From the NCBI GenBank assembly GCA_043720595.1, contig JAYSSK010000206.1, positions 7,016 through 71,015 on the forward strand: a stretch of DNA of 64,000 nucleotides, read 5' to 3'. This document shows positions 1 through 18,692 of this stretch, in pieces. How positions within the stretch are numbered: position 1 is the stretch's first letter; each line of letters starts with the position of its first letter. The position numbers and the translations under genes are program-made. The notes below the pieces were generated by a model. It worked only from the letters and a program-made list of their open reading frames with translations, ran no database searches and had not been told where the DNA came from. Origin of the DNA: Acidimicrobiia bacterium. Lineage in GTDB: Bacteria > Actinomycetota > Acidimicrobiia > Acidimicrobiales > JANYDT01.

Positions 1-2
1 TG

Positions 3-599
3 TACCAGGGAGGCATGGAAGTGCTGCTCGCACTTGTGCTCCCAATCCCTGTGCTGCTGTCGGTGGTTGGTCGAGCCGCGGTGACTTCCGTTTACGGACC
101 TTCGTACGCAAGTGCGTTCCGGCCGATGATGGCGCTCGCCATCGCCCTCGTCATGATCGTCGCGAACGTCTGGCAGGGGTTTGCCCTTGTGGCTGCGGGG
201 AACCAACGAGCGACGTTGTTCGCAGTCGGTCCAGCCATTGCAATCAACATTGCCATCGACGTGCCTCTGGTCATTCGGTATGGACCGCTCGGCGCAGCGC
301 TCGGCACGCTGGCAACTGCGGCGTTTCTGGTCACGTGTTCGTCGAGAGCGGTCACACGAATAACTGGCTGTCGCCTTGATCAGGCACGGCTGTTGCGTCT
401 GTCCGGGTGTGCGGTCGCACTGTGGGTCGTCGGCGCCGGGTTCCAAGCTGCCACTCAGAGTCACTGGTGGATCACCAGCGTGGTGGTGGGCAGCGCATGG
501 GTGCTGCTCCTCTGGTTGACAGGGTCTGTCCGCATGCCACTACAGGGTGATGGTGTTGGTCAAAGCGTTCGGTACGACGTTGGGTCCGGTGTGTCATGA
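3..599 (+). CDS. Polysaccharide flippase (Wzx/MATE-like), C-terminal part, truncated by the window edge
   Basis: Frame is open to the window start. Multiple TM helices and a typical Wzx C-terminal pattern (INIAIDVPLVIRYGPLGAALGT). First gene of a GT operon. Confidence 0.8.
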   Translation, partial: YQGGMEVLLALVLPIPVLLSVVGRAAVTSVYGPSYASAFRPMMALAIALVMIVANVWQGFALVAAGNQRATLFAVGPAIAINIAIDVPLVIRYGPLGAALGTLATAAFLVTCSSRAVTRITGCRLDQARLLRLSGCAVALWVVGAGFQAATQSHWWITSVVVGSAWVLLLWLTGSVRMPLQGDGVGQSVRYDVGSGVS

Positions 600-1708
600 G
601 CGCCTCAGTGAGCCAGAGCGACGGGCCGCCTGCAGGGCTGGACGCAGACCAAGCTAGGCACGCTTACGTTCCAGGGTTTTCGATTGTGATGCCCACATAC
701 AACCGATGCGACGTCGTTGATAGGACGATTCGCCAACTCCTTGCAGTTGACTATCCGGCGGATCGGTTTGAGATCATCGTTGTGGACAATTCAACGGACG
801 GAACACCGGCCATGGTGGCGCGGCACCATGCGGAGACGGCCGGAAGGGTTCGGCTGCTGTCGCTACCAGAACGGCTTCCCGCGATCAAACGCAATCGCGG
901 CCAGGACGAGGCATCGCACGAGTACGTGCTCTTCATCAACGACGACGTTTGGGTTGAACCTCAGTTCCTGGCGGAGCACGCGCGGAGTCACCTGTCCCAT
1001 CCAGAACCGGTAGCCGTCTTGGGATACGTCCGACAATCGGCGGAAATGGAGCAAACCCCATTCATTCGCCACTACCAACCGTTCGCCTATCACGAGTTAG
1101 CCGATCGAGCGGATGCGAAGGTTGGATGGCTCCACTTCTGGAGCATGAACCTGTCGATGCCTCGATCGACCATCCAGGAACGAAACCTTCGATTCCACGA
1201 GGACTGGGCCGAAATCGGCAACGAGGACGTCGAACTCGGGTACCGCTGGGTCAACCGCGCCGGATTACCCGCGGTCTATAACCCTCTGGCCTCCGGTGAA
1301 CACTTCCACCCCCACACGGTCGCGAGCGCTGGGGCTGTCCAAAGGTCCATCGGCAGAGGACTTCGCGACCTCACCCATTTGATCCCCGAGCGAACGCTTC
1401 TGGACCGGTACGGAGTTCTGTCGCTACGGAGTTCGCCACGTGGTCTCGCGCGAGGTGTCGTGCGGGAACTGCTCTTCAACCGGTACACGGTGCCACCGCT
1501 CACTCGATGGCTCGATGGGCTCCCGGCCGAATCAGACCAACGCATTGCTCGGTGGATGTACTGGAAAGTGTTGATGCACCACGTCAACGCCGGTTACCGC
1601 TCTGCGCCTGGCCGGACGCCGAGCCCGTTGCCGGTTCACCCGCCGCGCCATCCGGACTCGGACCCGATTGCAAGTACAACGATTGGCGCTGGACGAGCAG
1701 GAACATGA
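596..1708 (+). CDS. Glycosyltransferase family 2
   Basis: FSIVMPTYNR, EIIVVDNSTDGT, LFINDDV and EDVELGYR GT-A motifs. ATGA overlap with the flippase stop. Confidence 0.92.
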   Translation: MSASVSQSDGPPAGLDADQARHAYVPGFSIVMPTYNRCDVVDRTIRQLLAVDYPADRFEIIVVDNSTDGTPAMVARHHAETAGRVRLLSLPERLPAIKRNRGQDEASHEYVLFINDDVWVEPQFLAEHARSHLSHPEPVAVLGYVRQSAEMEQTPFIRHYQPFAYHELADRADAKVGWLHFWSMNLSMPRSTIQERNLRFHEDWAEIGNEDVELGYRWVNRAGLPAVYNPLASGEHFHPHTVASAGAVQRSIGRGLRDLTHLIPERTLLDRYGVLSLRSSPRGLARGVVRELLFNRYTVPPLTRWLDGLPAESDQRIARWMYWKVLMHHVNAGYRSAPGRTPSPLPVHPPRHPDSDPIASTTIGAGRAGT

Positions 1709-3246
1709 ATAGCTTCACCTCGTTACCCGAACAACAACCCACCCACGCAATGGTCAGCCGCGTGCGTCAAATCATGTTGGTGCTTGGTTCGGCCGGCGTG
1801 GCGTGGTTTGGTGCGTTGCTGGGATTGAAGTTCGTGGCAGCGCTCGCCGTCGCGGCGTGTTTCGTCAGTCTGCTCATCGTCACAAAACGACGCGACGAGG
1901 TCCTGCTCCTCACAGCCACTGTTTCCGTAGCGCTGGTGATTCGAAAATCGCTCGGGACTCTCACCTTCGTGCCGAGCGGAGCTGCCGGACTGTACGTGTC
2001 CAGCTTGGACTTGGTTGTCGTCATGATCTACGGGTTCTGGTTGTTTGAAGGAACGCTGTGGGCCGATCTCAAACGTCTGTGGACACGACGAGTGGTACAG
2101 GTCGTGATTTTGTGGCCAGTGTTCGTGTTGCCAAGTTTCGTGGTGGCAGGAAACGCAGGCCTGGCCTTTGCCGAACTGGTCCGCATGGCGTCGTGCACGG
2201 CTTTGTTCATTGCGTTCGCAGCCAGAGTTCGCACTCGACGCCACGTCCAGATCGTTCTTCTCACGCTTGCTGCTGTGGGGGTGGTCGAATGCATGATTGT
2301 GGTCGCGCAAAAGGCTACGCGAGGCCCACTGGGGCTTTCGTTCCTCGGGACACCGACGACCATGGTCGCAGGCCGCGTCACCGAGGCGGGCGTACTCGAC
2401 CGGCCATTCGGCACGATCAATCACCCGGTATTCATGGGAGCGGTACTCGCCCAGATCGGCCTGCTTGCTTTTGCCGTCACACTCGGCCTCCGCAATCCAC
2501 GTCATCGCCTGCTGGGCCTCGGAGTAGCTGGCGCTTGTGGGCTGCCGCTCGTGTTGTCCCAGACACGCGCCGCAGCACTTGGCGTAGGTGTCATTGCACC
2601 GCTGTTGGTGCTCTGGGCGTTGGCGACCAAGCGATTGGAGCCGCGGCTTGCTGCAGTGTGGGTGGCGGGAGTCGTGGCCTTGCTCGTCGTATCGCTTCCG
2701 ATAACGGTGCCGCTCTACAACGACAACTTTCAAACCGACCACTTCGGAGTCGAGGTCGAATCGAGGACACAACTCAACTCGCTCGCCATCGAAATGTGGG
2801 GCGATTCGCCGCTACTCGGCGTCGGCTTGAACAACTTTCAACCGGCCTCGCAGCGGTATCAAGACCCATCATTGATCTTTGCCGGAAACCCGGTGCACAA
2901 CGTGTACCTGCTGCAACTCTCCGAAACAGGGATCATCGGCACGGGGGGGTTCCTCGCCGCAATGGTTGCCGTGGTGATACTCGCACTCCGACTTTCGCGA
3001 AGCAGTGACCGCTTGTACAGCGCTTTGGGTGCCGGTCTGGTCGCAGTCATTGGTTTCTTCGCGATCGAAGAGATGCTTCTGTTCGCGCTCCGGCAGGAAT
3101 CCCCGCGAACGCTCTTCTGGATGCTCGCGGGCCTCGGAGTGGCGACCGATGGAATCGCACAGCGCGCCTCCACGGAGCGCGTGCCTGCCGTGACGTCTGC
3201 TCCTGTGGACATACCCGTCAGTTCTGGTCTACCGGTGTCGATGTGA
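1705..3246 (+). CDS. O-antigen ligase/Wzy_C family integral membrane protein (polymerase, ligase or O-oligosaccharyltransferase)
   Basis: Many TM segments; RPFGTINHP, LSQTRAA, PLLGVGLNNF and PVHNVYLLQLSETGIIG motifs. Start placed at ATG 1705 (ATGA overlap with the GT2 stop) rather than ORF-track 1507. Confidence 0.85.
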   Translation: MNSFTSLPEQQPTHAMVSRVRQIMLVLGSAGVAWFGALLGLKFVAALAVAACFVSLLIVTKRRDEVLLLTATVSVALVIRKSLGTLTFVPSGAAGLYVSSLDLVVVMIYGFWLFEGTLWADLKRLWTRRVVQVVILWPVFVLPSFVVAGNAGLAFAELVRMASCTALFIAFAARVRTRRHVQIVLLTLAAVGVVECMIVVAQKATRGPLGLSFLGTPTTMVAGRVTEAGVLDRPFGTINHPVFMGAVLAQIGLLAFAVTLGLRNPRHRLLGLGVAGACGLPLVLSQTRAAALGVGVIAPLLVLWALATKRLEPRLAAVWVAGVVALLVVSLPITVPLYNDNFQTDHFGVEVESRTQLNSLAIEMWGDSPLLGVGLNNFQPASQRYQDPSLIFAGNPVHNVYLLQLSETGIIGTGGFLAAMVAVVILALRLSRSSDRLYSALGAGLVAVIGFFAIEEMLLFALRQESPRTLFWMLAGLGVATDGIAQRASTERVPAVTSAPVDIPVSSGLPVSM

Positions 3247-5417
3247 AACGGGGTCGAGCCCGATGCGCGCGTATCGTATGTGCACATGTCGTCCTTTCTC
3301 TGCTTCTGACAAATCGGGCAGTCGCTACCGTCCAGCCCGCTCAACCGGTGCCGGCGACGGTCCAGGCCTCCACAACCGAGGACTTGGACATACTGCTGGG
3401 TGGCGCCGAACGCTCAACCGGGCGTCACCGAGTCTTTCGGGTCGTCGATGGCCGACCCGTACCGATCTCGCCACCAGGAGAGTTGGACTTCTTCTGGCCC
3501 GCTTGGGCATTCGGAGGCACCAAGATCGTGTTGTCCGCTCGGACCGGAGCGGAGGGTTCTCCCGAACAGATCTATTTGATGAACCCAGACGGCACAGGTT
3601 TGGAACAACTGACCGCAAATCCGTGGCGCAATCAGCAGCCCAAAGTGTCGCCGGATGGCCGCTCTGTAGTTTTCACATCGTCCTGGTCCGAGTTCGAACA
3701 CATCGCGCTGTATCGCTTGGACCTTTCTTCACTTGAGGTCACCAATCTGTCGGCCAAGACGAACCGCGTGGGAGCGTTCGACGCCGACCCACGGTTCGCG
3801 CTCGGCGGAACACGAATCGTTTTCGCCAACACCATCCGCGACGACCTGGTGAAGACCGTCCCGACACAGATCGATTCCATGGCGCTTGACGGATCCAACC
3901 GGCGTCACCTCGTTACCGATGCCGCGTACAACGTGGACCCCGCTCTGTCACCCAATGGCCAGCTGTTGACGTACAGCTCGTATCGGGGGAAGGGAAACCC
4001 GCGCAGCGACATCGCCGGGGGTGTCGAGGTGAAACTCGACAAATGGTTCCTCCCGATCCGTAACGTGCGCACTGGCAAAGAGGTGTTGGCCAACAAAGCG
4101 ATGAACTGCGCAGTGCGGGCGCCGGAGGATGCGTGCTCGGCCGACCTTCCATCTGCGTTCAATCCGGTGTGGCGTCCCGACGGAACCGGGCTCGGATACC
4201 TCGCAGCGTTGAGCTCGCGCACGATGTGTTTGTGTGTCGTCGACGCTGATGGAAAGCGAGCCCGTGTGCTCGTACCGACTGACGACATTGCGTTGACGTG
4301 GGCCGATTGGAAGGACTTGTCGGCAGCGCCGTCGTCCGCCGTGGTTTCCCAGCTCAAAGCCATCGGAACTCAACGAAGTACGGACCGCCTGCTGTTTGTC
4401 GCCGCGCGTGGATCCGGGCCTGGATCCATCTGGACATCGTCCGTCGACCGTTGGGGTGAAACCGCCGTGCCGCTACCAAACGGCTTCGACGTACAGACCG
4501 CGCGTTGGAGCGCTGACCGCCGCCGAATCGTCTTCGCCGCCCGGGCGCCGCTCACAATGATCGAACTTGGATTCACGCCGCGAACTGGTCCGAGGCGCAT
4601 CAGGCACTTCCCATCCACAGTTCTCGGTGTCGACATCGTCGACGTTGATCCCACATTGCAGGTCTTCATGGTGAACACCGACGGAACCGGGCTGCAGCGA
4701 TTGACAACGCCGACCATCGAAGACTGGCGCGACGCAGTACCTGACGGTGAATTGCGGTCGAACACCGACCCTGACCTTTCCCCCGATGGTACGAGGGTGC
4801 TCGTGACAAACCAGTCGCCTACCGGCGAATCGTTTCTCCTCTCGATCGATCTCCGAGACGGCACGATCGTCAATTTGACCAACGCAACGTCCGGAACGCA
4901 AGCCGTCACCGACACCACGGGTCGATACTCGCCCGACGGTAAATTGATCGCCTTCTCGAGCAACCTCGGTGCCGATCGGCAGATCATGACAATGGCCGCT
5001 GACGGCACCCGCGTGCGGGCATTGACGGACATCGCCGGAATCACCGCAAGCCCAGCGTGGTCGTCCGATGGCCGCCGCGTCGCGTTCGCGATGAACCTCT
5101 CGCCGGAGCCTCTTGGTGCGAAGGGAAGGCGGGCCGCTCAACCCGGCCTTGACTTGGCGCAGGCAGACCTCGCAGGCGTAGGCAGGTGGCAAGTGGCGAG
5201 CGTCGACGTTGCGACCCGCCGAACTCGCACATTGACCACACCCGACCCTGCTGGTGCGTTCTTGCCGACCTGGTCTCGTGATGGGCGGAACGTTTTGTAC
5301 ACCTCGTTGACGTCGCAGGGCAACACCGACCTACGCATCGTGGACACCACCTCGCTCGTTCAGCGACCACTCCAAATCACACAGCAGATGCGGGAGGTGT
5401 CAAGTGACTGGCGATGA
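3243..5417 (+). CDS. Secreted TolB-like (PD40 repeat) beta-propeller protein, probably two propellers
   Basis: Repeated P-x-(W/L/V/Y)-S-P-D-G blades (PKVSPDG, PALSPNG, PDLSPDG, YSPDG, PAWSSDG, PTWSRDG), IYLMNPDGTGLEQLT, N-terminal signal-like segment. GTGA overlap. Confidence 0.85.
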   Translation: MKRGRARCARIVCAHVVLSLLLTNRAVATVQPAQPVPATVQASTTEDLDILLGGAERSTGRHRVFRVVDGRPVPISPPGELDFFWPAWAFGGTKIVLSARTGAEGSPEQIYLMNPDGTGLEQLTANPWRNQQPKVSPDGRSVVFTSSWSEFEHIALYRLDLSSLEVTNLSAKTNRVGAFDADPRFALGGTRIVFANTIRDDLVKTVPTQIDSMALDGSNRRHLVTDAAYNVDPALSPNGQLLTYSSYRGKGNPRSDIAGGVEVKLDKWFLPIRNVRTGKEVLANKAMNCAVRAPEDACSADLPSAFNPVWRPDGTGLGYLAALSSRTMCLCVVDADGKRARVLVPTDDIALTWADWKDLSAAPSSAVVSQLKAIGTQRSTDRLLFVAARGSGPGSIWTSSVDRWGETAVPLPNGFDVQTARWSADRRRIVFAARAPLTMIELGFTPRTGPRRIRHFPSTVLGVDIVDVDPTLQVFMVNTDGTGLQRLTTPTIEDWRDAVPDGELRSNTDPDLSPDGTRVLVTNQSPTGESFLLSIDLRDGTIVNLTNATSGTQAVTDTTGRYSPDGKLIAFSSNLGADRQIMTMAADGTRVRALTDIAGITASPAWSSDGRRVAFAMNLSPEPLGAKGRRAAQPGLDLAQADLAGVGRWQVASVDVATRRTRTLTTPDPAGAFLPTWSRDGRNVLYTSLTSQGNTDLRIVDTTSLVQRPLQITQQMREVSSDWR

Positions 5418-6492
5418 CCAACCTCAGGACCCCACGCGGGTCCTCATTGAATACCCGGCCGCAAGCCACATCGACAATGGGACTCGGCCGCTCCCTCTGC
5501 TCAGCGTTGTCATCGTGAGTTGGAACACAGCTGACTTGCTTGACCAGTGCTTGCGCAGCATCGCAAAAGAGGTCGGCGACACCACCCACGAAGTCATCGT
5601 GGTGGACAACGGTTCCGACGATGGGAGCGCCGACTTGGTGCGTCGCTTGTGGCCGAACACCATTCTGATCGTCAACGAGTCCAACCAGGGCTATCAACGG
5701 GCCAACAACCGAGGAATGGCAGCGGCCCGCGGAGAACGACTGTTGCTCCTCAACGCTGACGCGTGCTTGCTTCCAGGATCGCTCACGATCTTGATGAGCA
5801 ACCTCGATCGAGACAACACCATCGGTGTCGTTGCGCCGAGATTGGTCTATCCCGATGGCAGTTGGCAGCGTTGGACAGCAGGCCGCGAGCCAAGTCTGGT
5901 CGGTGCGTTCGCATTCTTCCTCTTTCTCGAACGCATCTCGCGACGCTTTGCTGATTGTTCGTTGTGGCTGTACTCGGACACCGCCGAGGCGTTCAGTCCT
6001 GATTGGGTTTCAAGCGCTTGTCTGATGCTGCGCAGGGACACCCTCGCAGACACCGGACCGATGAACGAACGGTTCTTCGCATACATGGATGACGTTGATC
6101 TGTGTCGCCTTGCACGTAGTGCGGGTTGGACCGTCCGATATGACCCGGCTGCCACGGTGATGCACGTGATGGGCGCCGGAACTCGGCGGCGGACCGGTGC
6201 CGCCTCGCCGCTCGCGCTCCGCACGTTCAACCAGTACTTCGCCAGCCTTCACAGCGCCCCCCAGACGGCACTTCTCAAAGCCGTCGAGGCAATTGGTTTC
6301 GCTGCCCGCGTAGTCGCGCACGTCGCCCTCCTCGTGGCCGACCCGATTCACCATCGCAAGGCGATTCGGACGCAGTGGCGAAACACGGTGATCGCGCTCG
6401 AACGAATGAAGACACTTCCCGCCGCGCCGACGCACACAACACCGACGCACACAACACCGAGGCACACACCACAACCCAAAGGAGCACCATGA
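5404..6492 (+). CDS. Glycosyltransferase family 2 (WbbL/rhamnosyltransferase-like)
   Basis: LSVVIVSWNT, VVDNGSDDGS, LLLNADA, WVSSACLMLR and FFAYMDDVDLC motifs. Confidence 0.9.
   Translation: MTGDDQPQDPTRVLIEYPAASHIDNGTRPLPLLSVVIVSWNTADLLDQCLRSIAKEVGDTTHEVIVVDNGSDDGSADLVRRLWPNTILIVNESNQGYQRANNRGMAAARGERLLLLNADACLLPGSLTILMSNLDRDNTIGVVAPRLVYPDGSWQRWTAGREPSLVGAFAFFLFLERISRRFADCSLWLYSDTAEAFSPDWVSSACLMLRRDTLADTGPMNERFFAYMDDVDLCRLARSAGWTVRYDPAATVMHVMGAGTRRRTGAASPLALRTFNQYFASLHSAPQTALLKAVEAIGFAARVVAHVALLVADPIHHRKAIRTQWRNTVIALERMKTLPAAPTHTTPTHTTPRHTPQPKGAP
6427..6471 (+). repeat. 15-bp tandem repeat x3 (CCGACGCACACAACA, third copy degenerate) encoding PTHTT-like units
   Basis: Read directly at the 3' end of the GT2 CDS. 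Confidence 0.85.
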
Positions 6493-7430
6493 ACGTACTC
6501 GTCACCGGCGCAGGAGGCATGCTCGGAAGCGCGCTCGTACCGGCCTTCGTAGAAGCCGGCTACCACGTGATCGCCACCGACTGTGACGTGGCCACCGGCC
6601 CTGTATGGGGGAGGAACGGCCCACCGCTCTTTTACCTGGACGTCCGAGACCACGTCGCGGTCAAAGAAGCAGTGAAGTCGATCCGCCCCACATTCGTTGC
6701 ACACCTAGCGGCAGAAACGGACCTCGAACGATCCGATGCCGATCCTGTCGGGACCCGGGAGACCAACACGGCTTCGACCAGGCACATCGCGGAGGTGTGC
6801 AACGACGCAGGCTCGACGTTGATCTATATCAGCACTGCTGGTGTGTTCGACGGGACGAAGGACGATGCGTATACCGAGGCCGACGCACCGAACCCCATCA
6901 ACACATACGGAGCGACAAAGTTCGAAGGAGAGGTAGCCGTTCGCGAAACCATCGCTGCACATTTCATCGTGCGCGCCGGATGGATGGTGGGCGGAGGGCC
7001 GGGAAAGGATCACAAGTTCGTTGCCAAAATGATCGATCAGATACGAGCTGGTCGAAACACCATTCACGCTGTCGGCGACAAACTCGGAACTCCTACGTAT
7101 ACATTCGACTTTGCCCGCACTCTGCTCGCGCTGATCCACAGCGACAAATTCGGTTTGTACCACATGGCATGCGAGGGAGAAGGCAGTCGATACGACGTCG
7201 CGAAACACATTCTGCAGACACTCGGCCTCGATGATTCGACGAAGCTCATCGAGGTCGGTTCAGAGTTCTTCGCGCACGAATACACCTCCTTGCGGCCCCG
7301 CTCAGAGATCATGCGCAACGACGCTCTCGATCGGATCGGAATGAACATGATGCGCCCATGGCGCGAGGCCATCTCGGACTATCTGTGGCTCAACTTTGCC
7401 GACATGCAACGGGTTCGCCGGTCTGCTTGA
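6489..7430 (+). CDS. rfbD: dTDP-4-dehydrorhamnose reductase (RmlD)-like extended SDR
   Basis: MNVLVTGAGGMLG Rossmann motif, PNPINTYGATK (YxxxK), DKLGTPTY, GLYHM. ATGA overlap and GGAG SD at 6481. Confidence 0.8.
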   Translation: MNVLVTGAGGMLGSALVPAFVEAGYHVIATDCDVATGPVWGRNGPPLFYLDVRDHVAVKEAVKSIRPTFVAHLAAETDLERSDADPVGTRETNTASTRHIAEVCNDAGSTLIYISTAGVFDGTKDDAYTEADAPNPINTYGATKFEGEVAVRETIAAHFIVRAGWMVGGGPGKDHKFVAKMIDQIRAGRNTIHAVGDKLGTPTYTFDFARTLLALIHSDKFGLYHMACEGEGSRYDVAKHILQTLGLDDSTKLIEVGSEFFAHEYTSLRPRSEIMRNDALDRIGMNMMRPWREAISDYLWLNFADMQRVRRSA

Positions 7431-7534: not shown

Positions 7535-8644
7535 ATGAACATCTCCCCCCTTTCGACCATCAACTCGCCAGACCCCACGTCGCAGGACGACGCACCATCC
7601 GACACGGCAATTGACCTGCGGCGCGTCGCTGTCGTCATTCCGATGCCCAACGACCCGGACTGGGCACTGTTCGATGACCTCTCGCAAGACATCACCGTTA
7701 TCGTTCCCGACGACAGCGATGGGCACCTGACACCACCCGATAGGGCGAACGTTCTGTTCTACGACTACGACGCCCAGCGCGAGGTCATGGGGAAGAACTG
7801 GGACGCCATCCCACACAAGAGCGCTGCGTGTCGCAACTTCGGACACGTGCTCGCCTATCGCGAGGGATACGACGTGATCATTGCGTTGGACTATGACTGC
7901 CGTGTGCGACCGGGCTGGCTCCAAACCCATCTGGAGTCGCTCACCACCGTGGTTGACGCTCCGGCTCTCAAAGGGGAGTGGATCAACTCCATCACGGCAA
8001 AAGGCTTCTACGCCCGCGGATACCCCTACGAGTGGCGCACCCCGGACCGATCTCGCGTGGAGGAAACCTTCGCCTCTGGCCCCGTGAAGATCAACATGGG
8101 AGTCTGGGACAACGTCTTGGACCTGAACGGGGTCGACAAGCTGCCTAGCGAGCCTCCGTACGACCCTGGGCTGTACGGCGAAGAAAACCGCATCGCTCTC
8201 GGCAACATCCCGGTGTGCGGGATGAACACATCGTTCACGGCAGACTTGACGCCCGCATACTTCTTCCTCCCAGATGTGTGGGTGGATGGCTGGCAGCTCA
8301 GCCGCCATGACGACATCTGGGGTGGTTATGTCCTGAAGAAGTTGATGGACCTCCGAGGTGATCTGTTTTCGTTCGGTCGTCCGATCGTGGAGCACACCAA
8401 GCAAACTCGCCTCGAGCGGGTAGTGATGTTGGAGCAGTGGATGCATTTGATGGCGGAAGGTTTCTTCCAATGCGTCGATGCGGCCGTGAGCCGAGTGCGA
8501 CCGGGCGACTACGCGACAATGTTCGCCTCCTTCACCGACGAGTTCCTCGTCGAGGCGTCAAGGAGCCCCCGACCAACGCATTACAGGGGCGTCTACCGAG
8601 AATTGGGCGAGTCGATGCAGCGGTGGGCCCGGTGCTTCGAATGA
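7535..8644 (+). CDS. Reversibly glycosylated polypeptide / UDP-arabinopyranose mutase (GT75)-like protein
   Basis: Collinear match to plant RGP/UAM motifs: KSAACRNFG, ALDYDC, RGYPYEWR, GVWDNVLD, PVCGMNTSF, SRHDDIWGG, GRPIVEHTK. AGGAG SD. Confidence 0.8.
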   Translation: MNISPLSTINSPDPTSQDDAPSDTAIDLRRVAVVIPMPNDPDWALFDDLSQDITVIVPDDSDGHLTPPDRANVLFYDYDAQREVMGKNWDAIPHKSAACRNFGHVLAYREGYDVIIALDYDCRVRPGWLQTHLESLTTVVDAPALKGEWINSITAKGFYARGYPYEWRTPDRSRVEETFASGPVKINMGVWDNVLDLNGVDKLPSEPPYDPGLYGEENRIALGNIPVCGMNTSFTADLTPAYFFLPDVWVDGWQLSRHDDIWGGYVLKKLMDLRGDLFSFGRPIVEHTKQTRLERVVMLEQWMHLMAEGFFQCVDAAVSRVRPGDYATMFASFTDEFLVEASRSPRPTHYRGVYRELGESMQRWARCFE

Positions 8645-8654
8645 GGCGACAGAC

Positions 8655-9812
8655 ATGAAGGTGATGATCGACTGCGCTGCGCTTGGGTCGGGCCTCGGCG
8701 GAGACGAAACCTGGCTAACCGGTCTCATCGAGGGCCTTGCCGCTGTCACGGACACAACGACCACCGACTGTTATCCGCTGCTGGTCGATTCGGCGGAACG
8801 CGTTCCACACGCAGCGAGAGGTCAGCAGTGCTTTCCATTGGTTCCCGTCCGTCGACACCGAGGTCTCCGCCACTTCACGTTTGACCTTCGTCCCGCAACG
8901 AAACATCCCCAGCACGCAGACCTTCTGATGACCATCACGCACGCGCCGATGCGACCCCACGTCCCGTCGGCCCTCGTCATCGGCGACCTTTCGTTTCGAC
9001 ATCTTCCGCAGCTGTACCCCAGCCCGGTGCGTCAGCGATTGAATTGGCTCGTACCACAGCAAGCGAGACAGGCCCAGGTCGTGCTTACCCCAAGCGAATA
9101 TTCTCGCCAGGATCTGATCGAGTCATACAACCTTGACCCTGAACGGGTCTATGTCGTGCCGAATCGTGTAACCCTCCACGACCCTCGCGACGTCGCCGAC
9201 CACGAGAACGCGGCCAATATAGTATGGGCACGAACGAATGGCATTGACCGGCCGTTCCTGCTGTATCTGGGAAACGTGCACCCGCGCAAAAACTTGGGTC
9301 GCCTGGTCGAGGCATTCTTGATCGCTCGACAAAGGCCCGAGATGCATGACGCAGTTCTCGTGATTGCTGGAGCACGTTGGTGGGAATCCCCAGAAGGGCA
9401 GGCGTCCATGTCAGCAGCCCCAACCGGCTCTGTCATCGAAGTCGGTCGGGTGACCGACAGCATCCGTCATTGGCTTCTCGGAAATGCAGTTGCACTGGCG
9501 TATCCGTCATTGTTCGAAGGGTTCGGACTACCGCCTCTTGAAGCAATGGCCCATGGCACACCGGTCCTCGCTTCCAATTGCACATCGCTGCCCGAAGTGC
9601 TCGGCGACGGAGCGTTGTTGGTCGACCCCTACGACGTGGAGTCCATCGCGGTTGGGCTGACATCGTTGTGGACCGACTCGGGCCTGCGCAGATCGCTACG
9701 CGCCGCTGGTCAGCAACGTGCCGCACAGTTTGATTGCAGCCGAGTCGGTCGTGCTGCTGTCACAGCGTTTCGTTCGTCTGTGGGTCCAGAACGTATTGGG
9801 ATCGCGTCGTGA
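8655..9812 (+). CDS. Glycosyltransferase family 4 (GT-B)
   Basis: [34 protein letters not shown] and SLPEVLGD motifs. Confidence 0.93.
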
Positions 9813-10426
9813 ACGGACAGATCGGGATGCGAGAAGCGCTGCGTCAGGACTTCGAGGCGTGCATGGCGCTGGACCATCTGCGGCCCCGCGGGCTGCGGCG
9901 AACGTTCGACGTATTGACCCAGTCCGGATTTCTGACGGTCGTGTTGTTCCGCGTTGCCCACGCAGCTCATCTCCGTGGTTGGTTCCCATTGGCACGATTC
10001 CTCCTGCTTTTGATGGTGATTCTCTTCAGCGCCGAGATCTACCCGCAGGCTCGAATCGGCCCTGGTTTCGTGATCGCGCACCCCATGGGTGTAGCGATCG
10101 GCGCCGGCACCGTCATTGGCCCGAACGTTCAGGTTTACAAGGGTGCATCCATCGGCACCGCCGGGCTCCGCGACCCAGATCTCGATGGTTTTCCTACAAT
10201 CGAAGAAGGGTGCAAGATCTTCGATGGAGCCAAGGTGTTCGGGCCCATCACGATCGGAGCCCACAGCCGCATCGGGGCCGGGGTACTGCTGCTCCAGACA
10301 GTCCCACCGCACTCAACGGTGTTCGCACCGCAAGGCCAGGTTCGTACGGCGTCTCCCGAGGAACTGGCTGGCATCGAGCCGAAACACCTGATGAACGATC
10401 GAGAGGACCCCGTATGGGCGCCGTAA
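9809..10426 (+). CDS. Serine-acetyltransferase-like hexapeptide-repeat (LbH) O-acetyltransferase
   Basis: AEIYPQARIGPGFVIAHPMGVAIG and PTIEEGCKIFDGAKVFGPITIG. Start at GTG 9809 overlapping the GT4 stop. Confidence 0.85.
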   Translation: MNGQIGMREALRQDFEACMALDHLRPRGLRRTFDVLTQSGFLTVVLFRVAHAAHLRGWFPLARFLLLLMVILFSAEIYPQARIGPGFVIAHPMGVAIGAGTVIGPNVQVYKGASIGTAGLRDPDLDGFPTIEEGCKIFDGAKVFGPITIGAHSRIGAGVLLLQTVPPHSTVFAPQGQVRTASPEELAGIEPKHLMNDREDPVWAP

Positions 10427-11439
10427 AAAAGCTGCTGCTCGGGACCGTCCTCTCGGCAGCGGTCGGGGTGGGCATCGTTGCCCTCATCGCGTCGAAAGTG
10501 AACCGCGTCCCATCGGTGCCATCCGGTTTTGTTGCTCCAACCTCGCTCGTCGCTTCGTCGGCCCTGCTGAGTCCGACAGACATCGTTTTCGATTCGAACC
10601 GCACCGGAAATTTCGAGATCTGGGTCATGGCCGGTGACGGCGGCGCACAGCGCCAACTCACTTCTGACACGCAGACAGACGCGTGGTGGCCCCGCCCATC
10701 ACCCGACCGCCGACACATTCTCTTCAACCGTGTGCCAGCAGGTGTTCACGACACGAAGACAGCAAGCGTTTCGCTGTGGGTGATGGACTCCAACGGTAGG
10801 AACCAACGGCTACTCAGACCGCCAGGACTGGACGGGTGGGGCCAACAAGGGCACGCCGAATGGTCCCCCAGCGGCAACCAGTTGGTGATGTTCGGCGGCA
10901 GCACGCTGAACCCACAGATCTATCTCACGGATGCAACCGGTCAGTCTCCGCGAGCGCTCACGGACCGAGGAGGAACAAACATCGATCCGTCTTTTGCTCC
11001 TGACGGACAGACCATTACGTTCGTAGGATGCCCTCGGTCGTTCTGTCAGGCGAGCGACTACGAGATCTATACCGTTGCCGTGACAGGCGGCCCGGTGACA
11101 CGGATTACTGACGATAATCTGCGCGACCACGACCCGTACTTCTCTCCGGACGGCAACCAACTCGCATGGCTCACCGAAGTGACCAAGCCATCGAAGAGCG
11201 ACCCAACCGGAGCTTGGGACGTCCGCTTGTCCGACGCGTCAGGGGCCGGGATCAAACGGTTGACGAACGACACGCACATCACAAGCCGGCCGATCTGGGC
11301 CCCAGATGGCCAGTCCGTATTGGTCCACCGCCTCGAAAAGGGAACGGACACATCATTCCAACTGTTCCGGATTCAAGTGGCGACGGGCGCAATCACACGC
11401 CTGACCTCCGGACCATCAGTCAACGAGTACCCCGGCTAG
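10414..11439 (+). CDS. TolB-like (PD40) beta-propeller protein with N-terminal membrane anchor or signal
   Basis: IVFDSNRTGNFEIWVM, PRPSPDR, AEWSPSG, PSFAPDG, PYFSPDG, PIWAPDG. Hydrophobic N-terminus from ATG 10414. Confidence 0.88.
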   Translation: MGAVKKLLLGTVLSAAVGVGIVALIASKVNRVPSVPSGFVAPTSLVASSALLSPTDIVFDSNRTGNFEIWVMAGDGGAQRQLTSDTQTDAWWPRPSPDRRHILFNRVPAGVHDTKTASVSLWVMDSNGRNQRLLRPPGLDGWGQQGHAEWSPSGNQLVMFGGSTLNPQIYLTDATGQSPRALTDRGGTNIDPSFAPDGQTITFVGCPRSFCQASDYEIYTVAVTGGPVTRITDDNLRDHDPYFSPDGNQLAWLTEVTKPSKSDPTGAWDVRLSDASGAGIKRLTNDTHITSRPIWAPDGQSVLVHRLEKGTDTSFQLFRIQVATGAITRLTSGPSVNEYPG

Positions 11440-11457: not shown

Positions 11458-12981
11458 TCATCGGCGGGTTGCGGCCGCCCGTGTCAACCGATCTATGACC
11501 GCCGGTGAAAGGCCCTCGGCGTCTGCCGGAGGTTCAACGAGCAGCAGATCAAATCCTGCGATGTCCGCTTGACGTAAGCGCGCGTACAAAACAGCGGCAA
11601 GAGTCGCTCCGGTATACGGGAGCGGCGCGTCGATCTTGGCGGCTCCGGCCGGACCAGAGCCTGGTCCGAGGTAACCCACCCGGCTCCACTCCCCCGGCGG
11701 GATCGGGCTTCCCGGTTCGACTAACAGGACGGCAGCGCGGGGCGCATAGTGGCTGGCCAGCATTCCGGGTGCACGGCTAGGGCCCGATGCAACGGCCTGC
11801 ACAGGGCGCCCGATCACAGCCGCGATTTCGTCTGCGCTAATTGCTCCCGGGCGCAACACCTGCGCGTTGCCGTCAGCCAACTCGACAATGGTGGATTCGA
11901 CGCCAATCACACACGAACCACCATCGAGAATCGTGTCGACCAGACCATCTGCGTGCACATGATCAGCACACGTAGGACTGACGGCGCCGAATCGATTAGC
12001 AGATGGTGCAACCAGTCCCGCGTGCTCGCCACATAGAGCGATGAGCGCGAGCGATAGCGGGTGACGGGGTACGCGCACAGCAATTGTGTCGCGCCCGCCG
12101 GTGACCTCGTCGAGAACGTGTGCTTGACGCGGGAGCACAATGGTCAGCGGTCCTGGCCAGAACGCAGCAGCCAGTCGACGGGCGTCGTCGGTGACCACCG
12201 CCCAGGTGGACAACGAAGCTGCCGACGCGATGTGAACAATCAGCGGATGGTCGATGGGTCTGCCCTTTGCCGCGAACACCGAACGAACAGCAATCGGGTT
12301 GGCGGCATCTGCAGCCAACCCATAGACCGTCTCGGTTGGAATAGCGACAAGGCCACCCCCGCGAATGATCTCCGCTGCTTGCTCGACAGGGCCGGGTCCC
12401 TGGCTGTCGCGATCGGCCAGATCGAGCGCCCGCGTCATCACGATCGGCGCAGGAGAGTTGGGCGAAGCGTGCCCATACAAGCGATCAGGCGTCACGACAT
12501 AACCAATGCGCGCATACCATCGAACCAACTCCGGTTGAAAGGCACTCACCGCTAGCAGGGTCTCCGTTGCCCCGGTGGCTGCAGCGGTTTCGTGGGCTGC
12601 CTTTATCAGCGCTGTCCCAATGCCACTTCCGAACCATTGAGGAGCGCTGGCCACCTTGGTGACTTCTGCCGTACCGATACTGCGCTCATAGCCACGTTGA
12701 GGGCCATCCGCCGGGTTGCCGACACCAGAGGGGATCACCGAAACGGAGCCGACCAAGACACCCTGGTCGAACGCACCGAGCACCACAGCACCCTCGTCGA
12801 TCAATGCTCTAAGTGACTCGGGTCTGAGCCGCTGACCGCTCGAACGCGCATCGACCCTGGCGGCCCAAGCCGCGCGAATCAGGTCCACAACGGCGGTCTC
12901 TTCCTCGGCGCCAACAATCTGCCGGATCTCCAATCGGCCCGACTGCCCGATTGCCTGCCCGATTGCCTGCCCGATAGCCAC
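11458..12981 (-). CDS. sua5: GNAT acetyltransferase fused to Sua5/TsaC2 L-threonylcarbamoyladenylate synthase
   Basis: N-terminal GNAT (VASAPQWFGSGIGTALI, WYARIGY) in frame with AIPTETVYGL, KGRP..HPLIVH, APSANRFG, GVESTIV and PGMLASHYAP. Confidence 0.9.
   Translation of the reverse strand: MAIGQAIGQAIGQSGRLEIRQIVGAEEETAVVDLIRAAWAARVDARSSGQRLRPESLRALIDEGAVVLGAFDQGVLVGSVSVIPSGVGNPADGPQRGYERSIGTAEVTKVASAPQWFGSGIGTALIKAAHETAAATGATETLLAVSAFQPELVRWYARIGYVVTPDRLYGHASPNSPAPIVMTRALDLADRDSQGPGPVEQAAEIIRGGGLVAIPTETVYGLAADAANPIAVRSVFAAKGRPIDHPLIVHIASAASLSTWAVVTDDARRLAAAFWPGPLTIVLPRQAHVLDEVTGGRDTIAVRVPRHPLSLALIALCGEHAGLVAPSANRFGAVSPTCADHVHADGLVDTILDGGSCVIGVESTIVELADGNAQVLRPGAISADEIAAVIGRPVQAVASGPSRAPGMLASHYAPRAAVLLVEPGSPIPPGEWSRVGYLGPGSGPAGAAKIDAPLPYTGATLAAVLYARLRQADIAGFDLLLVEPPADAEGLSPAVIDRLTRAAATRR
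12943..12978. repeat. 12-bp tandem repeat x3 (CTGCCCGATTGC) encoding AIGQ x3
   Basis: Read directly; third copy has one mismatch. Confidence 0.9.
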
Positions 12982-15266: not shown

Positions 15267-16283
15267 GTGAGTGGGTCATCACATCGACGCGAAGACCGAC
15301 CGGATTGGGCGCAGGCCAACCCGGTGCGGATCGACGCGGCGCTCGCCCGAGCGCTGGTCAAGCCATCCGGTGGCTGGTTTGTGTTGGGCGCGTCACGGAC
15401 CTACGGCGGGTCGAGCCGGCACGTGATTGCCAAACTGTCGCCGCTGCGACGAGGCCCGTCCAAAGTGTTGGGTCCTTGGCGCGAGACAGTTGCCGATCAG
15501 GAGTTGGTGTTGTGGCGCACCGAGCCCGGCGGACCGCTTCACATTGCACCTGGCTCCTGCCCCCATATGGGTGCCCATCTCGCCGACGGATCGGTCCGTG
15601 ACGGGTGCCTTGTGTGCCCTTGGCACGGACTATCGCTCGACGAACCCCATGGGCAATGGCGGCAGCTTCCGGTTCACGACGACGGGATCTTGGTGTGGGT
15701 GCAACTCGAACCAACGGCCGCTGACGCACTCAGCGCCCCCGTGCTCCCCAAGCGACCTGATGTCTTCCTCGACGGCGTGACCCGAGTCGATGCCACATGC
15801 GAACCAGCCGACGTGATCGCCAACCGCCTCGACCCATGGCACGGCGCACACATCCATCCGTACGCGTTCACGGCCTTGCGCGTGATCGACGAGACCGACG
15901 ATGCAATCGATCTGGTCGTGGCGTACAAGGTGGTCGGCTCGTACGCCGTCGAAGTCACCGCCCGGTTCGAAACCCCCGAGCCAAGGACGATCGTGATGAC
16001 GATCATCGATGGCGAAGGCACGGGCTCGGTCGTCGAAACGCACGCCACCCCCATCGTGTCTGCGACCGCCAACCGATCGCCGCGCACCGCCGTGATCGAG
16101 GCGACACTGGCGACGTCTGACCGCCCAGGTTTCGCGTACGCCTTACGCGGAGCAGCGATCGCCAGGCCGATCATCAAGCTGTCAGCTGCACGGCTCTGGA
16201 AGGACGACGCCAGGTACGCCGAGCGGCGCTACCACCAGCGCGTCGCTCTAGGCAACCCTCGACCCACCAACTCAAGCCTTTGA
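15267..16283 (+). CDS. crtV: Rieske [2Fe-2S] domain protein of carotenoid clusters (CrtV/DUF5914-like)
   Basis: CPHMGAHL and CPWHG Rieske motifs, DVIANRLDPWHGA, SVVETHATP, RLWKDDARYAERRY. Lies near crtU/crtT. Confidence 0.75.
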   Translation: MSGSSHRREDRPDWAQANPVRIDAALARALVKPSGGWFVLGASRTYGGSSRHVIAKLSPLRRGPSKVLGPWRETVADQELVLWRTEPGGPLHIAPGSCPHMGAHLADGSVRDGCLVCPWHGLSLDEPHGQWRQLPVHDDGILVWVQLEPTAADALSAPVLPKRPDVFLDGVTRVDATCEPADVIANRLDPWHGAHIHPYAFTALRVIDETDDAIDLVVAYKVVGSYAVEVTARFETPEPRTIVMTIIDGEGTGSVVETHATPIVSATANRSPRTAVIEATLATSDRPGFAYALRGAAIARPIIKLSAARLWKDDARYAERRYHQRVALGNPRPTNSSL

Positions 16284-16322
16284 CCGGCAGTCACGCCAGC
16301 ACGATGAGATCACTGGGCGGAC

Positions 16323-16394
16323 TCACCGAGTCAGGTCGATCAAATCGGATCGACCCACCCGGATCCGGTTGCCGTTCGGGTCGATCACGGTGAA
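16323..16394 (-). pseudogene. Possible C-terminal remnant of a VOC/glyoxalase family gene
   Basis: Minus-strand frame reads FTVIDPNGNRIRVG then stop, matching the DPxGN terminal motif. An in-frame stop lies shortly upstream. Confidence 0.35.
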
Positions 16395-16493
16395 CAGGTT
16401 CAGCGGAGCGGCTCGAACTATGCAGCCGCGTACACGTCATTGGCCGTCGTCGATCGCAGGGTTGAGTATCCCGGGCGACGCGCTCGGCAACGT

Positions 16494-17468
16494 TCAGTTC
16501 GCCAACCGAGGTGGAAACAGCGTGCAATTGTTAGCGATCCCGCCGACATAACACTCATACGCTGGATCGACAGCCGTGTATCGAAGGTCGAGATCGATCG
16601 CGCTGGCTGTGCCGCGCAGCGGTCTGATCGCCACCGACAGATGCGTGAAGTCGTTCCCCGGGTTTGGCAGAACAGCCGGAGAAGCGGAATCGAAGTTGAC
16701 GCACCCCGCAGATTTCCAAACCGCCGGCAGGGTCTTGCCTCGCCACCCGCCTGGACACGCGACAAGCCTCACCGTTGAGTTCGTCGAGAGAGTGATGACC
16801 CCGGCCTTGGGATGAAACTGTTCGATCTGAGCCACGATGGAAGTCGAGATGGTGACTCGCTCGACACGGAGCCATACCTTGGCGGGTAGTTCCTCGAGGA
16901 CGCCTACCGCGCGGACATCGACCGGGAACGAACTTGATGCCAGATTCTTGAGCCGTGACAGGTCAGCGCTGTGCATCCACCCGACCACCGTCAGGCCACC
17001 GCCACCCCACATCGCACTGAACCTCGAATTTCCGGAGATTTCGGAAAGCACCTCGACCGCGGCCGGAATCGACTCGCCGACATAGGTGGCCTCGCCAGGA
17101 ACTGTCCGGAGCGTCACGCACACCGTGCGCCGGTTCAGTTCGCCGCGCTCATCGACGACACCGATCAGCGCGGTTCGGAGCGGTTCCGCATCGACCCGAG
17201 TCGTCCGGCCTGTGAACGCGATGGTTCGGCGGTCGAACTCCACCCGAAGGTCTCCGTTGGCGGCCGAAGGAACCGCTGGCGTGCACTGTCTGATGGTCAG
17301 CGCTTCAGCGCTCGGGGTTGCGTGGGCGAACAGGATCACCAGGACGAGCAGCGCGATGCCAGAGCAACGGATCGAACGCACACAACCAGTTGATCGCGCC
17401 GATGCCGCTGTACATATCCGAGGAACGGTTCGCACTCTGCGGCCGGGCAGCATCTCTCTATTGCTCAC
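16494..17468 (-). CDS. Hypothetical secreted protein (start uncertain)
   Basis: Signal-peptide-like IALLVLVILFAHATPSAEA; several Cys; no recognised domain. Confidence 0.6.
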   Translation of the reverse strand: MSNREMLPGRRVRTVPRICTAASARSTGCVRSIRCSGIALLVLVILFAHATPSAEALTIRQCTPAVPSAANGDLRVEFDRRTIAFTGRTTRVDAEPLRTALIGVVDERGELNRRTVCVTLRTVPGEATYVGESIPAAVEVLSEISGNSRFSAMWGGGGLTVVGWMHSADLSRLKNLASSSFPVDVRAVGVLEELPAKVWLRVERVTISTSIVAQIEQFHPKAGVITLSTNSTVRLVACPGGWRGKTLPAVWKSAGCVNFDSASPAVLPNPGNDFTHLSVAIRPLRGTASAIDLDLRYTAVDPAYECYVGGIANNCTLFPPRLAN

Positions 17469-18597
17469 CGGTGCAATGCCGACGAAGTGCTACGCCAGCT
17501 TCGAACAACGCATCGCAAACTCGGGCCAATGCGGTGGGCGACGTGACCAGCCCGGCACGGTCGTTCGGAGTGTGGAAATCCATCCCAGCACCACTGATCG
17601 AGAGCATCGGCAGATACAGGTGCTGAAGCACCTCCCCCTCGCCGACCCAATGAGGTGACGACGCGGTCAGCTTCAAGCCAATGGATGCAAGAGCTCCGTC
17701 GATTGGTTCGATCGCAGACTGGTTCAAGGACGTCATCGCTCTGCGAGTTGCGATGAGTTGGCGACCGTCGGAGCCGTCGGATTCGACCGCAACCGACGCA
17801 CCGATGTGCATGATGCAACCCAGCTCGGGGTCGACACTCCGGTCTCCCGTCAGCTGTTGCGCAACCCAGTGTTCCGCGCCGAGATAGCCCAGTTCGTGGC
17901 CGCCAGTGGCAACGACGAAGATCGGCCCACCGAGAATAAGCCGACTGACCAATTCGAGTAGCACTGCGACCCCGGTCCCTCGCTCGCCGGCGCAACCGAA
18001 CCATCCGGTGAGCGGCGTCGTCAGCATCAGATGCTTTCCGGGTCGACCATTGTCGGCAAACACGTTGGTCGTGCTCAGTGGCATCGTCTGAGCAGACGCT
18101 CGAACATGCACGACGCCGGACTGCAGGACGCTCAACTCGGTGCCAGCGACAAGGAACACCGGGAAATTGGTCGGGTCTACGTGCAACGGCCGGTTGATCG
18201 CCCGCAGCAACCCGGAGGGATGGCGCGTTGCGCAGACTGCGGCCTCGAAGCCAGCCTCACGGGCTCGGCGAACGGGCTCGGCTATAACCGAGATGTCGCC
18301 GCCGAGCCCCGGCTCAAGGTCGATGACGGCAACCCGGTCGGTGTCGATCGTTCCCTGCCACTCGTACGGCACGGGCAGGCACTCGACCTCGTGCTGACCC
18401 ACCCGAATGGTTGCGTCGGAATGCCAGCCCGTGAAGTTGACGGTCTCTCGACGGACGGAAAGCCCGGCAAGCTCTAGGTGTTCGGTCAACCAATCGGCTG
18501 TCTCTAGGTCCACCGAGGAACCAGTTCGGTGAAAACCGAGTGCCTCGTACTCAGCCACTAAACGGAAGAGTTGATCTGGAGAACGACCAGGTCCCAT
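17458..18597 (-). CDS. Hypothetical protein with PA-domain / M28 peptidase-like architecture
   Basis: HRTGS, GERGTGVAVLLEL, GGHELGYLG and FHTPND resemble the M28 scaffold. Confidence 0.55.
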   Translation of the reverse strand: MGPGRSPDQLFRLVAEYEALGFHRTGSSVDLETADWLTEHLELAGLSVRRETVNFTGWHSDATIRVGQHEVECLPVPYEWQGTIDTDRVAVIDLEPGLGGDISVIAEPVRRAREAGFEAAVCATRHPSGLLRAINRPLHVDPTNFPVFLVAGTELSVLQSGVVHVRASAQTMPLSTTNVFADNGRPGKHLMLTTPLTGWFGCAGERGTGVAVLLELVSRLILGGPIFVVATGGHELGYLGAEHWVAQQLTGDRSVDPELGCIMHIGASVAVESDGSDGRQLIATRRAMTSLNQSAIEPIDGALASIGLKLTASSPHWVGEGEVLQHLYLPMLSISGAGMDFHTPNDRAGLVTSPTALARVCDALFEAGVALRRHCTGEQ

Positions 18598-18692
18598 GTG
18601 CGAAGACTACGACCGGTGCGTCAACGTCAGATTCACGATCACCATTCGCGCGTTGTAGGGGCTGCAGGCCGCGAGAGTGACACGGGCGGACG

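Follow-up and report, generated by a model that had tools for sequence, protein, structure and literature searches.

A GT75 protein with a conserved RmlD-like reductase partner in an Acidimicrobiia polysaccharide cluster, predicted to be a dTDP-6-deoxyhexose mutase

What does a relative of the plant UDP-arabinopyranose mutases (UAMs) do inside a bacterial polysaccharide cluster, and on which nucleotide sugar might it act? The question is raised by a 64,000-nucleotide stretch of an Acidimicrobiia genome (the window; G000:C206:7016-71015, genome 78% complete). The initial annotation had recognized there a homolog of the plant RGP proteins (family GT75) within a surface-glycan operon, and had suggested that it supplies a nucleoside diphosphate (NDP)-furanose by a plant-like route, possibly from the product of the adjacent RmlD-like enzyme. 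The gene in question is as follows.

7535..8644, plus strand: GT75/RGP-family protein of the DYD clade, 369 amino acids (aa), predicted NDP-pyranose mutase (Pfam, phmmer and fold match)

It is a real gene, and its product is a GT75 member that is neither a plant UAM nor an ortholog of the bacterial mutase MtdL. A role in making an NDP-furanose appears likely. We put at roughly 0.55 the probability that the protein is a deoxythymidine diphosphate (dTDP)-6-deoxyhexose pyranose-furanose mutase, most likely acting on dTDP-D-fucose, that would feed a Wzx/Wzy polysaccharide.

The open reading frame (ORF) is intact, starts with ATG downstream of an AGGAG ribosome-binding site and has a coding-type codon bias, with G+C fractions of 0.60, 0.43 and 0.78 at the three codon positions. 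No transmembrane segment was found in the protein (maximum 19-residue hydropathy of 0.91). Its sole Pfam match is RGP (PF03214), which scores 36.8 bits where the cut-off is 23.8 (E = 3.4e-9), which bears out the proposed homology. All 22 members of alignment A2 match this profile at E <= 0.01, and the close orthologs of genomes G311 and G314 score under its cut-off in a six-frame search. A phmmer search of the PDB returned MtdL chains only (E = 1.6e-16), and a 44-sequence profile additionally reached rice UAM2 (8cid; E = 2e-4). The AlphaFold2 model (predicted local distance difference test score [pLDDT] of 88.3) comprises a GT-A N-terminal domain, the GT75 core and C-terminal helices. Foldseek gave a template-modeling (TM) score of 0.81 to MtdL, and VIA-align superposed 343 residues on MtdL 7xpt with a Z score of 40.1 and a root mean square deviation of 2.4, compared with Z scores of 29.0 for rice UAM2 and 13.9 or less for unrelated GT-A folds. 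The neighbors of the protein in the ESM Atlas are RGP/STELLO clusters only. The FAD-binding GLF fold (PF03275) was found neither in the Pfam search nor in the model, and the predicted reaction is all that the protein would share with the Glf/UDP-galactopyranose mutase (UGM) enzymes, Fcf2 included. Calling the route plant-like was an overstatement: both the sequence and the fold are closer to MtdL than to rice UAM2, although the pocket residues Pro36, Gly229 and Met230 differ from those of MtdL, the first two being of plant type.

The eight motifs that had been set beside plant strings are all present, in the order stated: KSAACRNFG (aa 95 to 103), ALDYDC (117 to 122), RGYPYEWR (161 to 168), GVWDNVLDL (189 to 197), PVCGMNTSF (226 to 234), PAYFF (240 to 244), SRHDDIWGG (256 to 264) and GRPIVEHTK (281 to 289). 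The DxD motif and the Arg of the third motif are kept, as had been claimed (Asp119, Asp121 and Arg161). The positions that matter for the argument are these.

7823..7825, plus strand: Ala97, at the position of MtdL Asp87 and AtRGP2 Ser91
7889..7897, plus strand: Asp119-Tyr120-Asp121, aligned with MtdL Asp109-Asp110-Asp111, Tyr in place of the middle Asp (alignment)
8015..8017, plus strand: Arg161, equivalent to MtdL Arg159 and OsUAM1 Arg158, proposed nucleophile and self-glycosylation site
8300..8326, plus strand: SRHDDIWGG, which holds Arg257, a binder of beta-phosphate and sugar, and Asp260, the proposed general base, both numbered as in MtdL
8393..8395, plus strand: His287, equivalent of the MtdL Mn2+ ligand

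Equivalents of MtdL Arg90, Asp109, Asp111, Arg159, Asp195, Arg257, Asp260 and His287 are all present, and these eight residues are invariant in 120 listed close homologs (61 to 92% identity; 343 matches among 2597 candidates), the set to which all our close-homolog counts refer. The Mn2+ ligands of MtdL (Asp109, Asp111, His287) correspond to Asp119, Asp121 and His287, and its nucleophile, aspartates and phosphate-binding Arg (Arg159, Asp195, Asp260, Arg257) to Arg161, Asp196, Asp260 and Arg257. Other pocket positions are changed, namely, Thr13 to Pro36 (an equivalence mapped via the MtdL-like protein P0270 and not MtdL itself), Asp87 to Ala97, Asp110 to Tyr120, Ser228 to Gly229 and Gln229 to Met230; Ser96 matches MtdL Ser86. 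Ala97 is conserved in 120/120 of the close homologs and Tyr120 in 119, the remaining one having Phe. The protein thus has none of the five residues (Thr13, Asp87, Asp110, Ser228, Gln229) that mark the MtdL/Hyg20 GDP-sugar subfamily. Nor does it have the DDD motif and the Ser at AtRGP2 position 91 of the plant class-1 UAMs (PMC6861824, PMC9937993), where it carries DYD and Ala97. In MtdL, Asp110 contacts ribose O2, and Asp87 contacts the C6-OH of D-glucose or the C4-OH of L-fucose (PMC9937993). Loss of the ribose-O2 binder would suit a deoxyribose nucleotide, and an alanine at position 97 would suit a 6-deoxy sugar.

A representative library yielded 809 GT75 clusters at E <= 0.001. Of 150 listed clusters, the 113 of 290 to 430 aa were aligned, 8 partial or poorly aligned rows were removed, and FastTree, used for all trees, was run on the other 105 rows plus the query with Shimodaira-Hasegawa (SH)-like support. 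The query falls in a 22-row clade (SH support of 100) whose members all lack the middle Asp of the DxD motif; among the other 84 rows, 80 keep it. Sequences of the MtdL type (T..D..S/T-Q) group in another clade, and no plant class-1 UAM was identifiable among the retrieved GT75 rows of the tree. We place the protein in an undescribed subfamily, whose conserved partner, a reductase, is encoded directly upstream in the window.

6489..7430, plus strand: non-canonical RmlD-like NDP-4-keto-6-deoxyhexose reductase, predicted partner of the mutase (PF04321, 220 bits)

This reductase is not an RmlD equivalog: it scores 211.9 bits to TIGR01214, under the cut-off of 224.05, and has STAGVFDG in place of STDYVFDG. 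It keeps YxxxK, carries a RAGWMxGGG..DHKFV segment and falls in its own clade, apart from canonical RmlD. The genome holds elsewhere a canonical rmlD (STDY type, contig C316), two rmlC-family genes and rmlA. Given these separate genes and the different sugar-site motif, the cluster reductase probably does not serve rhamnose synthesis. Its best PDB match is 5u9c (E = 2.7e-42), which may come from Yersinia enterocolitica and perhaps be WbcB, an enzyme of the CDP-6-deoxy-D-gulose pathway. Single-sequence fold prediction of the reductase was unusable (pLDDT of 36), and the 25 listed matches in plasmid records reach at most about 34% identity.

We then examined the gene neighborhoods of GT75 homologs. 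The 103 GT75-bearing loci collapsed into 84 groups at 95% identity, 69 of which reach 50% identity to the query or more; in 56 of the 69, the DNA extends 400 bp or more upstream. The sample leans to close kin because the metagenome scan covered the best 80 of 149 relatives. The reductase gene lies directly upstream of the GT75 gene in 46/56 close groups and further upstream in 3. Of the 10 GTDB loci, 7 have it directly 5'; in the remaining 3, it heads the same cluster, 8 to 9 kb upstream. By contrast, in seven distant non-viral loci (38 to 42% identity), it is directly downstream in five and 1.4 kb downstream in one, the seventh contig being too short to show it. That the order of the two genes is reversed in unrelated clusters speaks for a functional link between them. 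Both genes are present in the same 6 of 34 relatives (G311-G344), and neither is found in the other 28. In two sister loci of the tree, L094 and L095, the order is rmlB-rmlA-GT75-reductase; the RmlB of L095 scores 465 bits, over the cut-off, that of L094 is split into two ORFs, and tblastn with the RmlC of our genome found no match in either locus. The RmlD-like reductase is the sole nucleotide-sugar enzyme found to be co-inherited with GT75, with rmlBA added in two loci. The link to the adjacent enzyme that had been suggested from the window is strengthened by this survey. As an informal control, MtdL-type GT75 genes adjoin genes whose best NCBIfam match, below the cut-off, is GDP-fucose synthase.

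L111:5650-7996, L112:5535-7735, L142:6805-9778: MtdL-type GT75 genes with GDP-fucose-synthase-like neighbors, two of them in viral contigs

Searches for a Glf-family mutase gave nothing, either in the genome or in GT75-bearing relatives (0/10 and 0/4). The top homologs of the L094 reductase bear Patescibacteria names, and blastn of a low-GC GT75-reductase pair against E. coli genomes gave no match.

By analogy with the Arg/Asp cycle proposed, not proven, for MtdL (PMC9937993), we infer every chemical step of the following mechanism. The neighboring reductase would make a dTDP-linked 6-deoxyhexose, probably dTDP-D-fucopyranose, which the GT75 protein would bind via Mn2+ (Asp121, His287) and Arg257, without a flavin. 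Asp260 would activate Arg161 for attack on the sugar C1, the ring would open, and closure through O4 would give the furanose, to be transferred by a GT2 enzyme of the cluster to the lipid-linked repeat unit. If the substrate is a dTDP-6-deoxyhexose, D-fucose is the probable sugar because of the missing epimerase, the known substrate range of GT75 and pathway precedent. Another isomer, such as 6-deoxy-L-altrose or 6-deoxy-D-gulose, is a lesser but substantial possibility, and the former stays a candidate because both C5 epimers are substrates of the reductase and of the FAD mutase in C. jejuni HS:41.

Several observations weigh against a dTDP-6-deoxyhexose mutase. No rmlB was found over the cut-off in this 78%-complete genome, whereas one was in 9/10 relatives, and the reductase was not found in the examined DNA of 7/56 close locus groups. 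Because the genes of the cluster are passed on together as one block, the co-occurrence counts are not independent, and L094 and L095, being near kin, amount to about one event; their RmlA-like genes best match TIGR01207, under its cut-off. Reductases with the RmlD fold are active on UDP- and CDP-sugars as well, and no characterized member was identified in the subfamily of the cluster reductase. Two STAG-type reductases (L088:2779-3636, L089:3494-4357) have HWRTK in place of the catalytic YxxxK, with His for Tyr. Tyr120 is a weak marker of deoxyribose, as the middle DxD residue is variable across GT-A enzymes and three tree rows outside the query clade have DND or DHD. Ala97 and DYD are also compatible with impaired activity: D87N and D87S in MtdL, as well as S91D and S91Y in AtRGP2, abolish mutase activity (PMC9937993), and DDD is reported to be essential in OsUAM1 (PMC6861824). 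Genome G025, 99% complete, has the cluster with its four glycosyltransferases and the reductase but no GT75, so the mutase is dispensable there. Lastly, the phage members of the clade (DSD type; L106/107, L108, L110) lack such a reductase in the DNA fetched, L106 carrying a nucleotide-sugar dehydrogenase instead.

The G025 cluster locus (L138; G025:C1:2588500-2608400) has no PD40 matches either. Glf occurs in 13/301 genomes of the class, G025 among them, and we considered whether it replaces GT75 there. Its glf (C1:612965) lies far from the cluster, with neighbors that, judged by eye on N-terminal sequences, are flagellar genes and two GT2-like ORFs. This single case was not retained as support. 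As for the phages, each of the three groups has an RmlB-like dehydratase nearby, under the cut-off.

L106:769-8655, L108:6974-10898, L110:4652-9021: viral contigs with DSD-type GT75 genes, RmlB-like dehydratases and glycosyltransferase-like ORFs

In L106, capsid and cement genes precede the cluster, an arrangement suggestive of virion glycosylation.

How do other explanations fare? The protein might be a mutase with a plant-type or otherwise non-dTDP substrate, such as UDP-L-arabinopyranose, UDP-D-galactopyranose or a UDP- or CDP-6-deoxyhexose, the reductase then using that nucleotide or producing some other sugar of the repeat unit. In its favor, Pro36 and Gly229 are the residues that the plant enzymes have at MtdL Thr13 and Ser228 (PMC9937993). 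Moreover, galE-like and nucleotide-sugar dehydrogenase-like genes occur elsewhere in the genome, judging from N-terminal motifs, and one phage member adjoins such a dehydrogenase. We nevertheless regard this explanation as unlikely: no ugd, UDP-xylose synthase or 4-epimerase gene was found in the polysaccharide cluster, the co-inherited enzyme is an RmlD-like reductase joined in two loci by rmlBA, and both the ribose-O2-binding Asp and the plant Ser91 are changed. UDP-arabinose is not the best-supported substrate. An MtdL/Hyg20-type function on GDP-L-fucose or GDP-L-galactose appears very improbable. MtdL is the best solved match, Ser96 is shared with it, and a gmd-like gene was recognized elsewhere in the genome by an N-terminal motif (C246), but the residues at Asp87, Ser228 and Gln229 are changed, MtdL-type sequences sit in a separate clade, and no GDP-sugar gene was found in the cluster. 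The change of Thr13 to Pro weakens GDP binding by MtdL approximately 28-fold (dissociation constant from 0.2 to 5.66 uM; PMC9937993).

The protein might also be no mutase at all and instead glycosylate itself, transfer sugar or serve the reductase as an NDP-sugar-binding partner, in the manner of the inactive class-2 RGPs. DYD in place of DDD, Ala at the Asp87/Ser91 position and the retention of the same glycosyltransferases without GT75 in G025 would fit such a role, as would the STELLO-labeled clusters among the ESM Atlas neighbors and the existence of inactive plant GT75 members (PMC9937993). We doubt it. Inactive AtRGP5 has lost the equivalents of His287 and Arg257 (PMC9937993), which are kept in all the close homologs together with those of Arg159, Asp195 and Asp260, and GT75 is strictly paired with a C4-reductase, as in the reductase-mutase pairs already known. 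A dTDP-6-deoxyhexose mutase thus remains our preferred reading.

By its gene content, the surrounding cluster is of the Wzx/Wzy polysaccharide type, in agreement with the surface-glycan context first proposed. Its order is priming sugar transferase, GT2, wzz-like, wzx, GT2, wzy/ligase-like and PD40 propeller, followed by GT2, RmlD-like, GT75, GT4, CysE-like acetyltransferase and PD40. This core order was found in all 10 GTDB loci, nine titled Acidimicrobiia or Actinomycetes and one Acidobacteria. The priming sugar-transferase, GT2 and wzz-like genes precede the flippase gene, upstream of the window; the other members of the cluster are as follows.

1..599, plus strand: Wzx-type flippase, 3' part (gene start at C206:6133, upstream of the window)
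596..1708, plus strand: GT2 glycosyltransferase (PF00535)
1705..3246, plus strand: Wzy/O-antigen-ligase-like membrane protein (PF04932)
3243..5417, plus strand: TolB-like protein with a PD40 beta-propeller (724 aa), a conserved member of the cluster
5404..6492, plus strand: GT2 glycosyltransferase, candidate user of the furanose donor (PF00535)
8655..9812, plus strand: GT4 glycosyltransferase (PF00534)
9809..10426, plus strand: CysE/EpsC-like hexapeptide O-acetyltransferase
10414..11439, plus strand: another TolB-like PD40 propeller protein at the cluster end, with a hydrophobic segment at its N terminus

The flippase fragment in the window has no Pfam match by itself, and its 69%-identical ortholog in L001 matches PF13440/PF01943. 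The GT2 protein at 5404..6492 has weak matches, below the cut-offs, to the rhamnosyltransferase model TIGR01556 and to GlfT1. Both PD40 propellers have N-terminal hydrophobic segments and are found in the cluster at most loci, the propeller being fused to the wzy-like ORF in L002 and L006. A scan for promoters and terminators gave 1 and 7 sites against shuffle means of 1.4 and 4.1, nothing usable. Many loci, though not the window, have a class I S-adenosylmethionine (SAM) methyltransferase gene between the GT2 and reductase genes (e.g., L028:5159-6025; also L005, L010, L024, L035, L036, L042, L048, L051, L057, L073, L075 and L077), possibly coding for a sugar O-methyltransferase. In L094, an NDP-sugar C-methyltransferase-type gene (PF08421; L094:8893-9732) follows the reductase gene. 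A DND-type clade member in L091 (2894-10329) lies beside ABC transporter genes, an epimerase gene, canonical and STAG-type rmlD genes and a radical SAM enzyme whose best match, under the cut-off, is the prokaryotic viperin model; this looks like a secondary-metabolite cluster. Beyond the polysaccharide genes, the window encodes a GNAT acetyltransferase fused to Sua5/TsaC (11458-12981, minus strand), which are two separate ORFs in the close relative L001. At 15267-20977, a Rieske/DUF5914 gene lies on the strand opposite to a methyltransferase gene and an FAD-oxidoreductase-like ORF, presumably resembling a carotenoid-modification locus.

The distribution of GT75 is patchy. Close orthologs were found in 6/40 relatives, among them the same-genus relative G313 (locus L001), and no further one in a 301-genome sample of the class; PF03214 occurs in 5/401 genomes of the phylum, G000 included. 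Plasmid and phage records (9 and 1, respectively) gave distant homologs only, at 27 to 30% identity. The phage record H1 (LR756511.1:205984-206910), from an uncultured 595-kb phage, encodes a full-length homolog at 27.5% identity. In the same phylum, GT75 proteins of other types are encoded in polysaccharide loci of the Wzx and Wzm/Wzt kinds (L139:6607-7680, L140:8138-9268), one scoring 152 bits to PF03214 and one being of MtdL type. Together with L142, these indicate that a polysaccharide-locus setting is common for GT75. Among proteins of 675 to 2000 aa, the search for GT75-reductase fusions gave one match, P0391. The sequences of P0391 and of P0130 read as frameshifted run-ons of GT75 into downstream genes, and both were rejected as fusions. 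The absence of fusions is weak evidence, as just 7998 candidates were scored.

What would these genes mean if the assignment holds? The gene pair occurs in Acidimicrobiia and in loci of low GC that look like Patescibacteria, and DSD-type relatives of the mutase are encoded in putative phage glycosylation clusters. We propose tentatively, at somewhat less than even odds, that the DYD-type GT75 and the STAG-type RmlD-like reductase form a widespread, undescribed two-gene module. It would be the first route by which bacteria make, without a flavin, a dTDP-6-deoxyhexofuranose (dTDP-D-fucofuranose) for their surface polysaccharides, and would stand in for Fcf1/Fcf2 as a non-homologous system. A literature search, judged mostly on the openings of abstracts and with thin coverage of subscription journals, gave no account of a dTDP-sugar GT75 or of GT75 in a bacterial surface-polysaccharide cluster. 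Among the characterized GT75 mutases, those of plants act on UDP-sugars, and MtdL and Hyg20 act on GDP-sugars; dTDP would be a third nucleotide class. Furanose-containing glycans would gain a genetic explanation in genomes without glf, and a product would be assigned to a common reductase subfamily now annotated RmlD. The enzyme would also be a cofactor-free tool for NDP-furanoses, described as hard to obtain in PMC9937993. Since the enzyme type and its chemistry are already known, the family would be extended and the mechanism would not be new; what is new here is the substrate proposal for an enzyme type already known in bacteria.

PMC9937993 gives MtdL and Hyg20 as the two characterized bacterial GT75 members, which interconvert the pyranose and furanose forms of GDP-L-fucose and GDP-L-galactose without flavin adenine dinucleotide (FAD). 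The initial premise, by which Glf/UGM and decaprenyl-phosphoarabinose are the only sources of characterized bacterial furanose donors, is therefore wrong. MtdL belongs to the A201A pathway of Marinactinospora thermotolerans (PDB 7xpr, 7xps, 7xpt, 7xpu, 7yua and 8hl8) and Hyg20 to the hygromycin pathway. Our protein resembles MtdL in fold, metal ligands and the equivalents of Arg159, Asp195, Arg257 and Asp260, at about 22% identity, and like both enzymes it is bacterial and predicted to be flavin independent. Unlike them, it has Pro, Ala, Tyr and Gly/Met at the five substrate-pocket positions, belongs to another clade, and is encoded not in an antibiotic cluster but in a Wzx/Wzy cluster with an RmlD-like reductase, where a dTDP-sugar and not a GDP-sugar is predicted. 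With the plant UAMs/RGPs (OsUAM1, AtRGP2, OsUAM2) it shares a PF03214 score over the cut-off, the fold, the self-glycosylation Arg and the Pro and Gly residues; it differs in having DYD for DDD or DDN, Ala at AtRGP2 Ser91 and no arabinose-pathway genes in its cluster. OsUAM2, a divergent inactive member, is a weaker match than MtdL. A further lead, Haloarcula HAH_1662 as a GT75 protein, was dropped, as PMC5467301 does not contain such terms.

The cluster reductase shares with RmlD (TIGR01214) and 5u9c the short-chain dehydrogenase/reductase fold family and the Thr/YxxxK motifs, and with 5u9c, a dTDP-4-dehydrorhamnose reductase by the depositors' label only, also the RAGWMxGGG..DHKFV segment. 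It differs from RmlD in having STAG for STDY, in its TIGR01214 score and in its clade, apart from the canonical RmlD of the genome. The closest pathway precedents are the dTDP-D-fucofuranose pathway of E. coli O52, with RmlA, RmlB, the Fcf1 reductase and the Fcf2 mutase (PMC10888714, PMC7685785), and that of C. jejuni HS:41 for CDP-D-fucofuranose as well as CDP-6-deoxy-L-altrofuranose (PMC12369002). The cluster GT75 and its reductase are proposed as a flavin-free counterpart of Fcf1/Fcf2. The predicted logic is the same, from a nucleotidyltransferase through a 4,6-dehydratase, a C4-reductase and a mutase to a surface polysaccharide. The mutase step sets the systems apart: HS41.17 was shown to be a flavin-dependent Glf/UGM-type mutase (PMC12369002) and Fcf2 shares 51% identity with a protein that bears the UGM annotation (PMC10888714), whereas an unrelated GT75 protein would carry out this step here.

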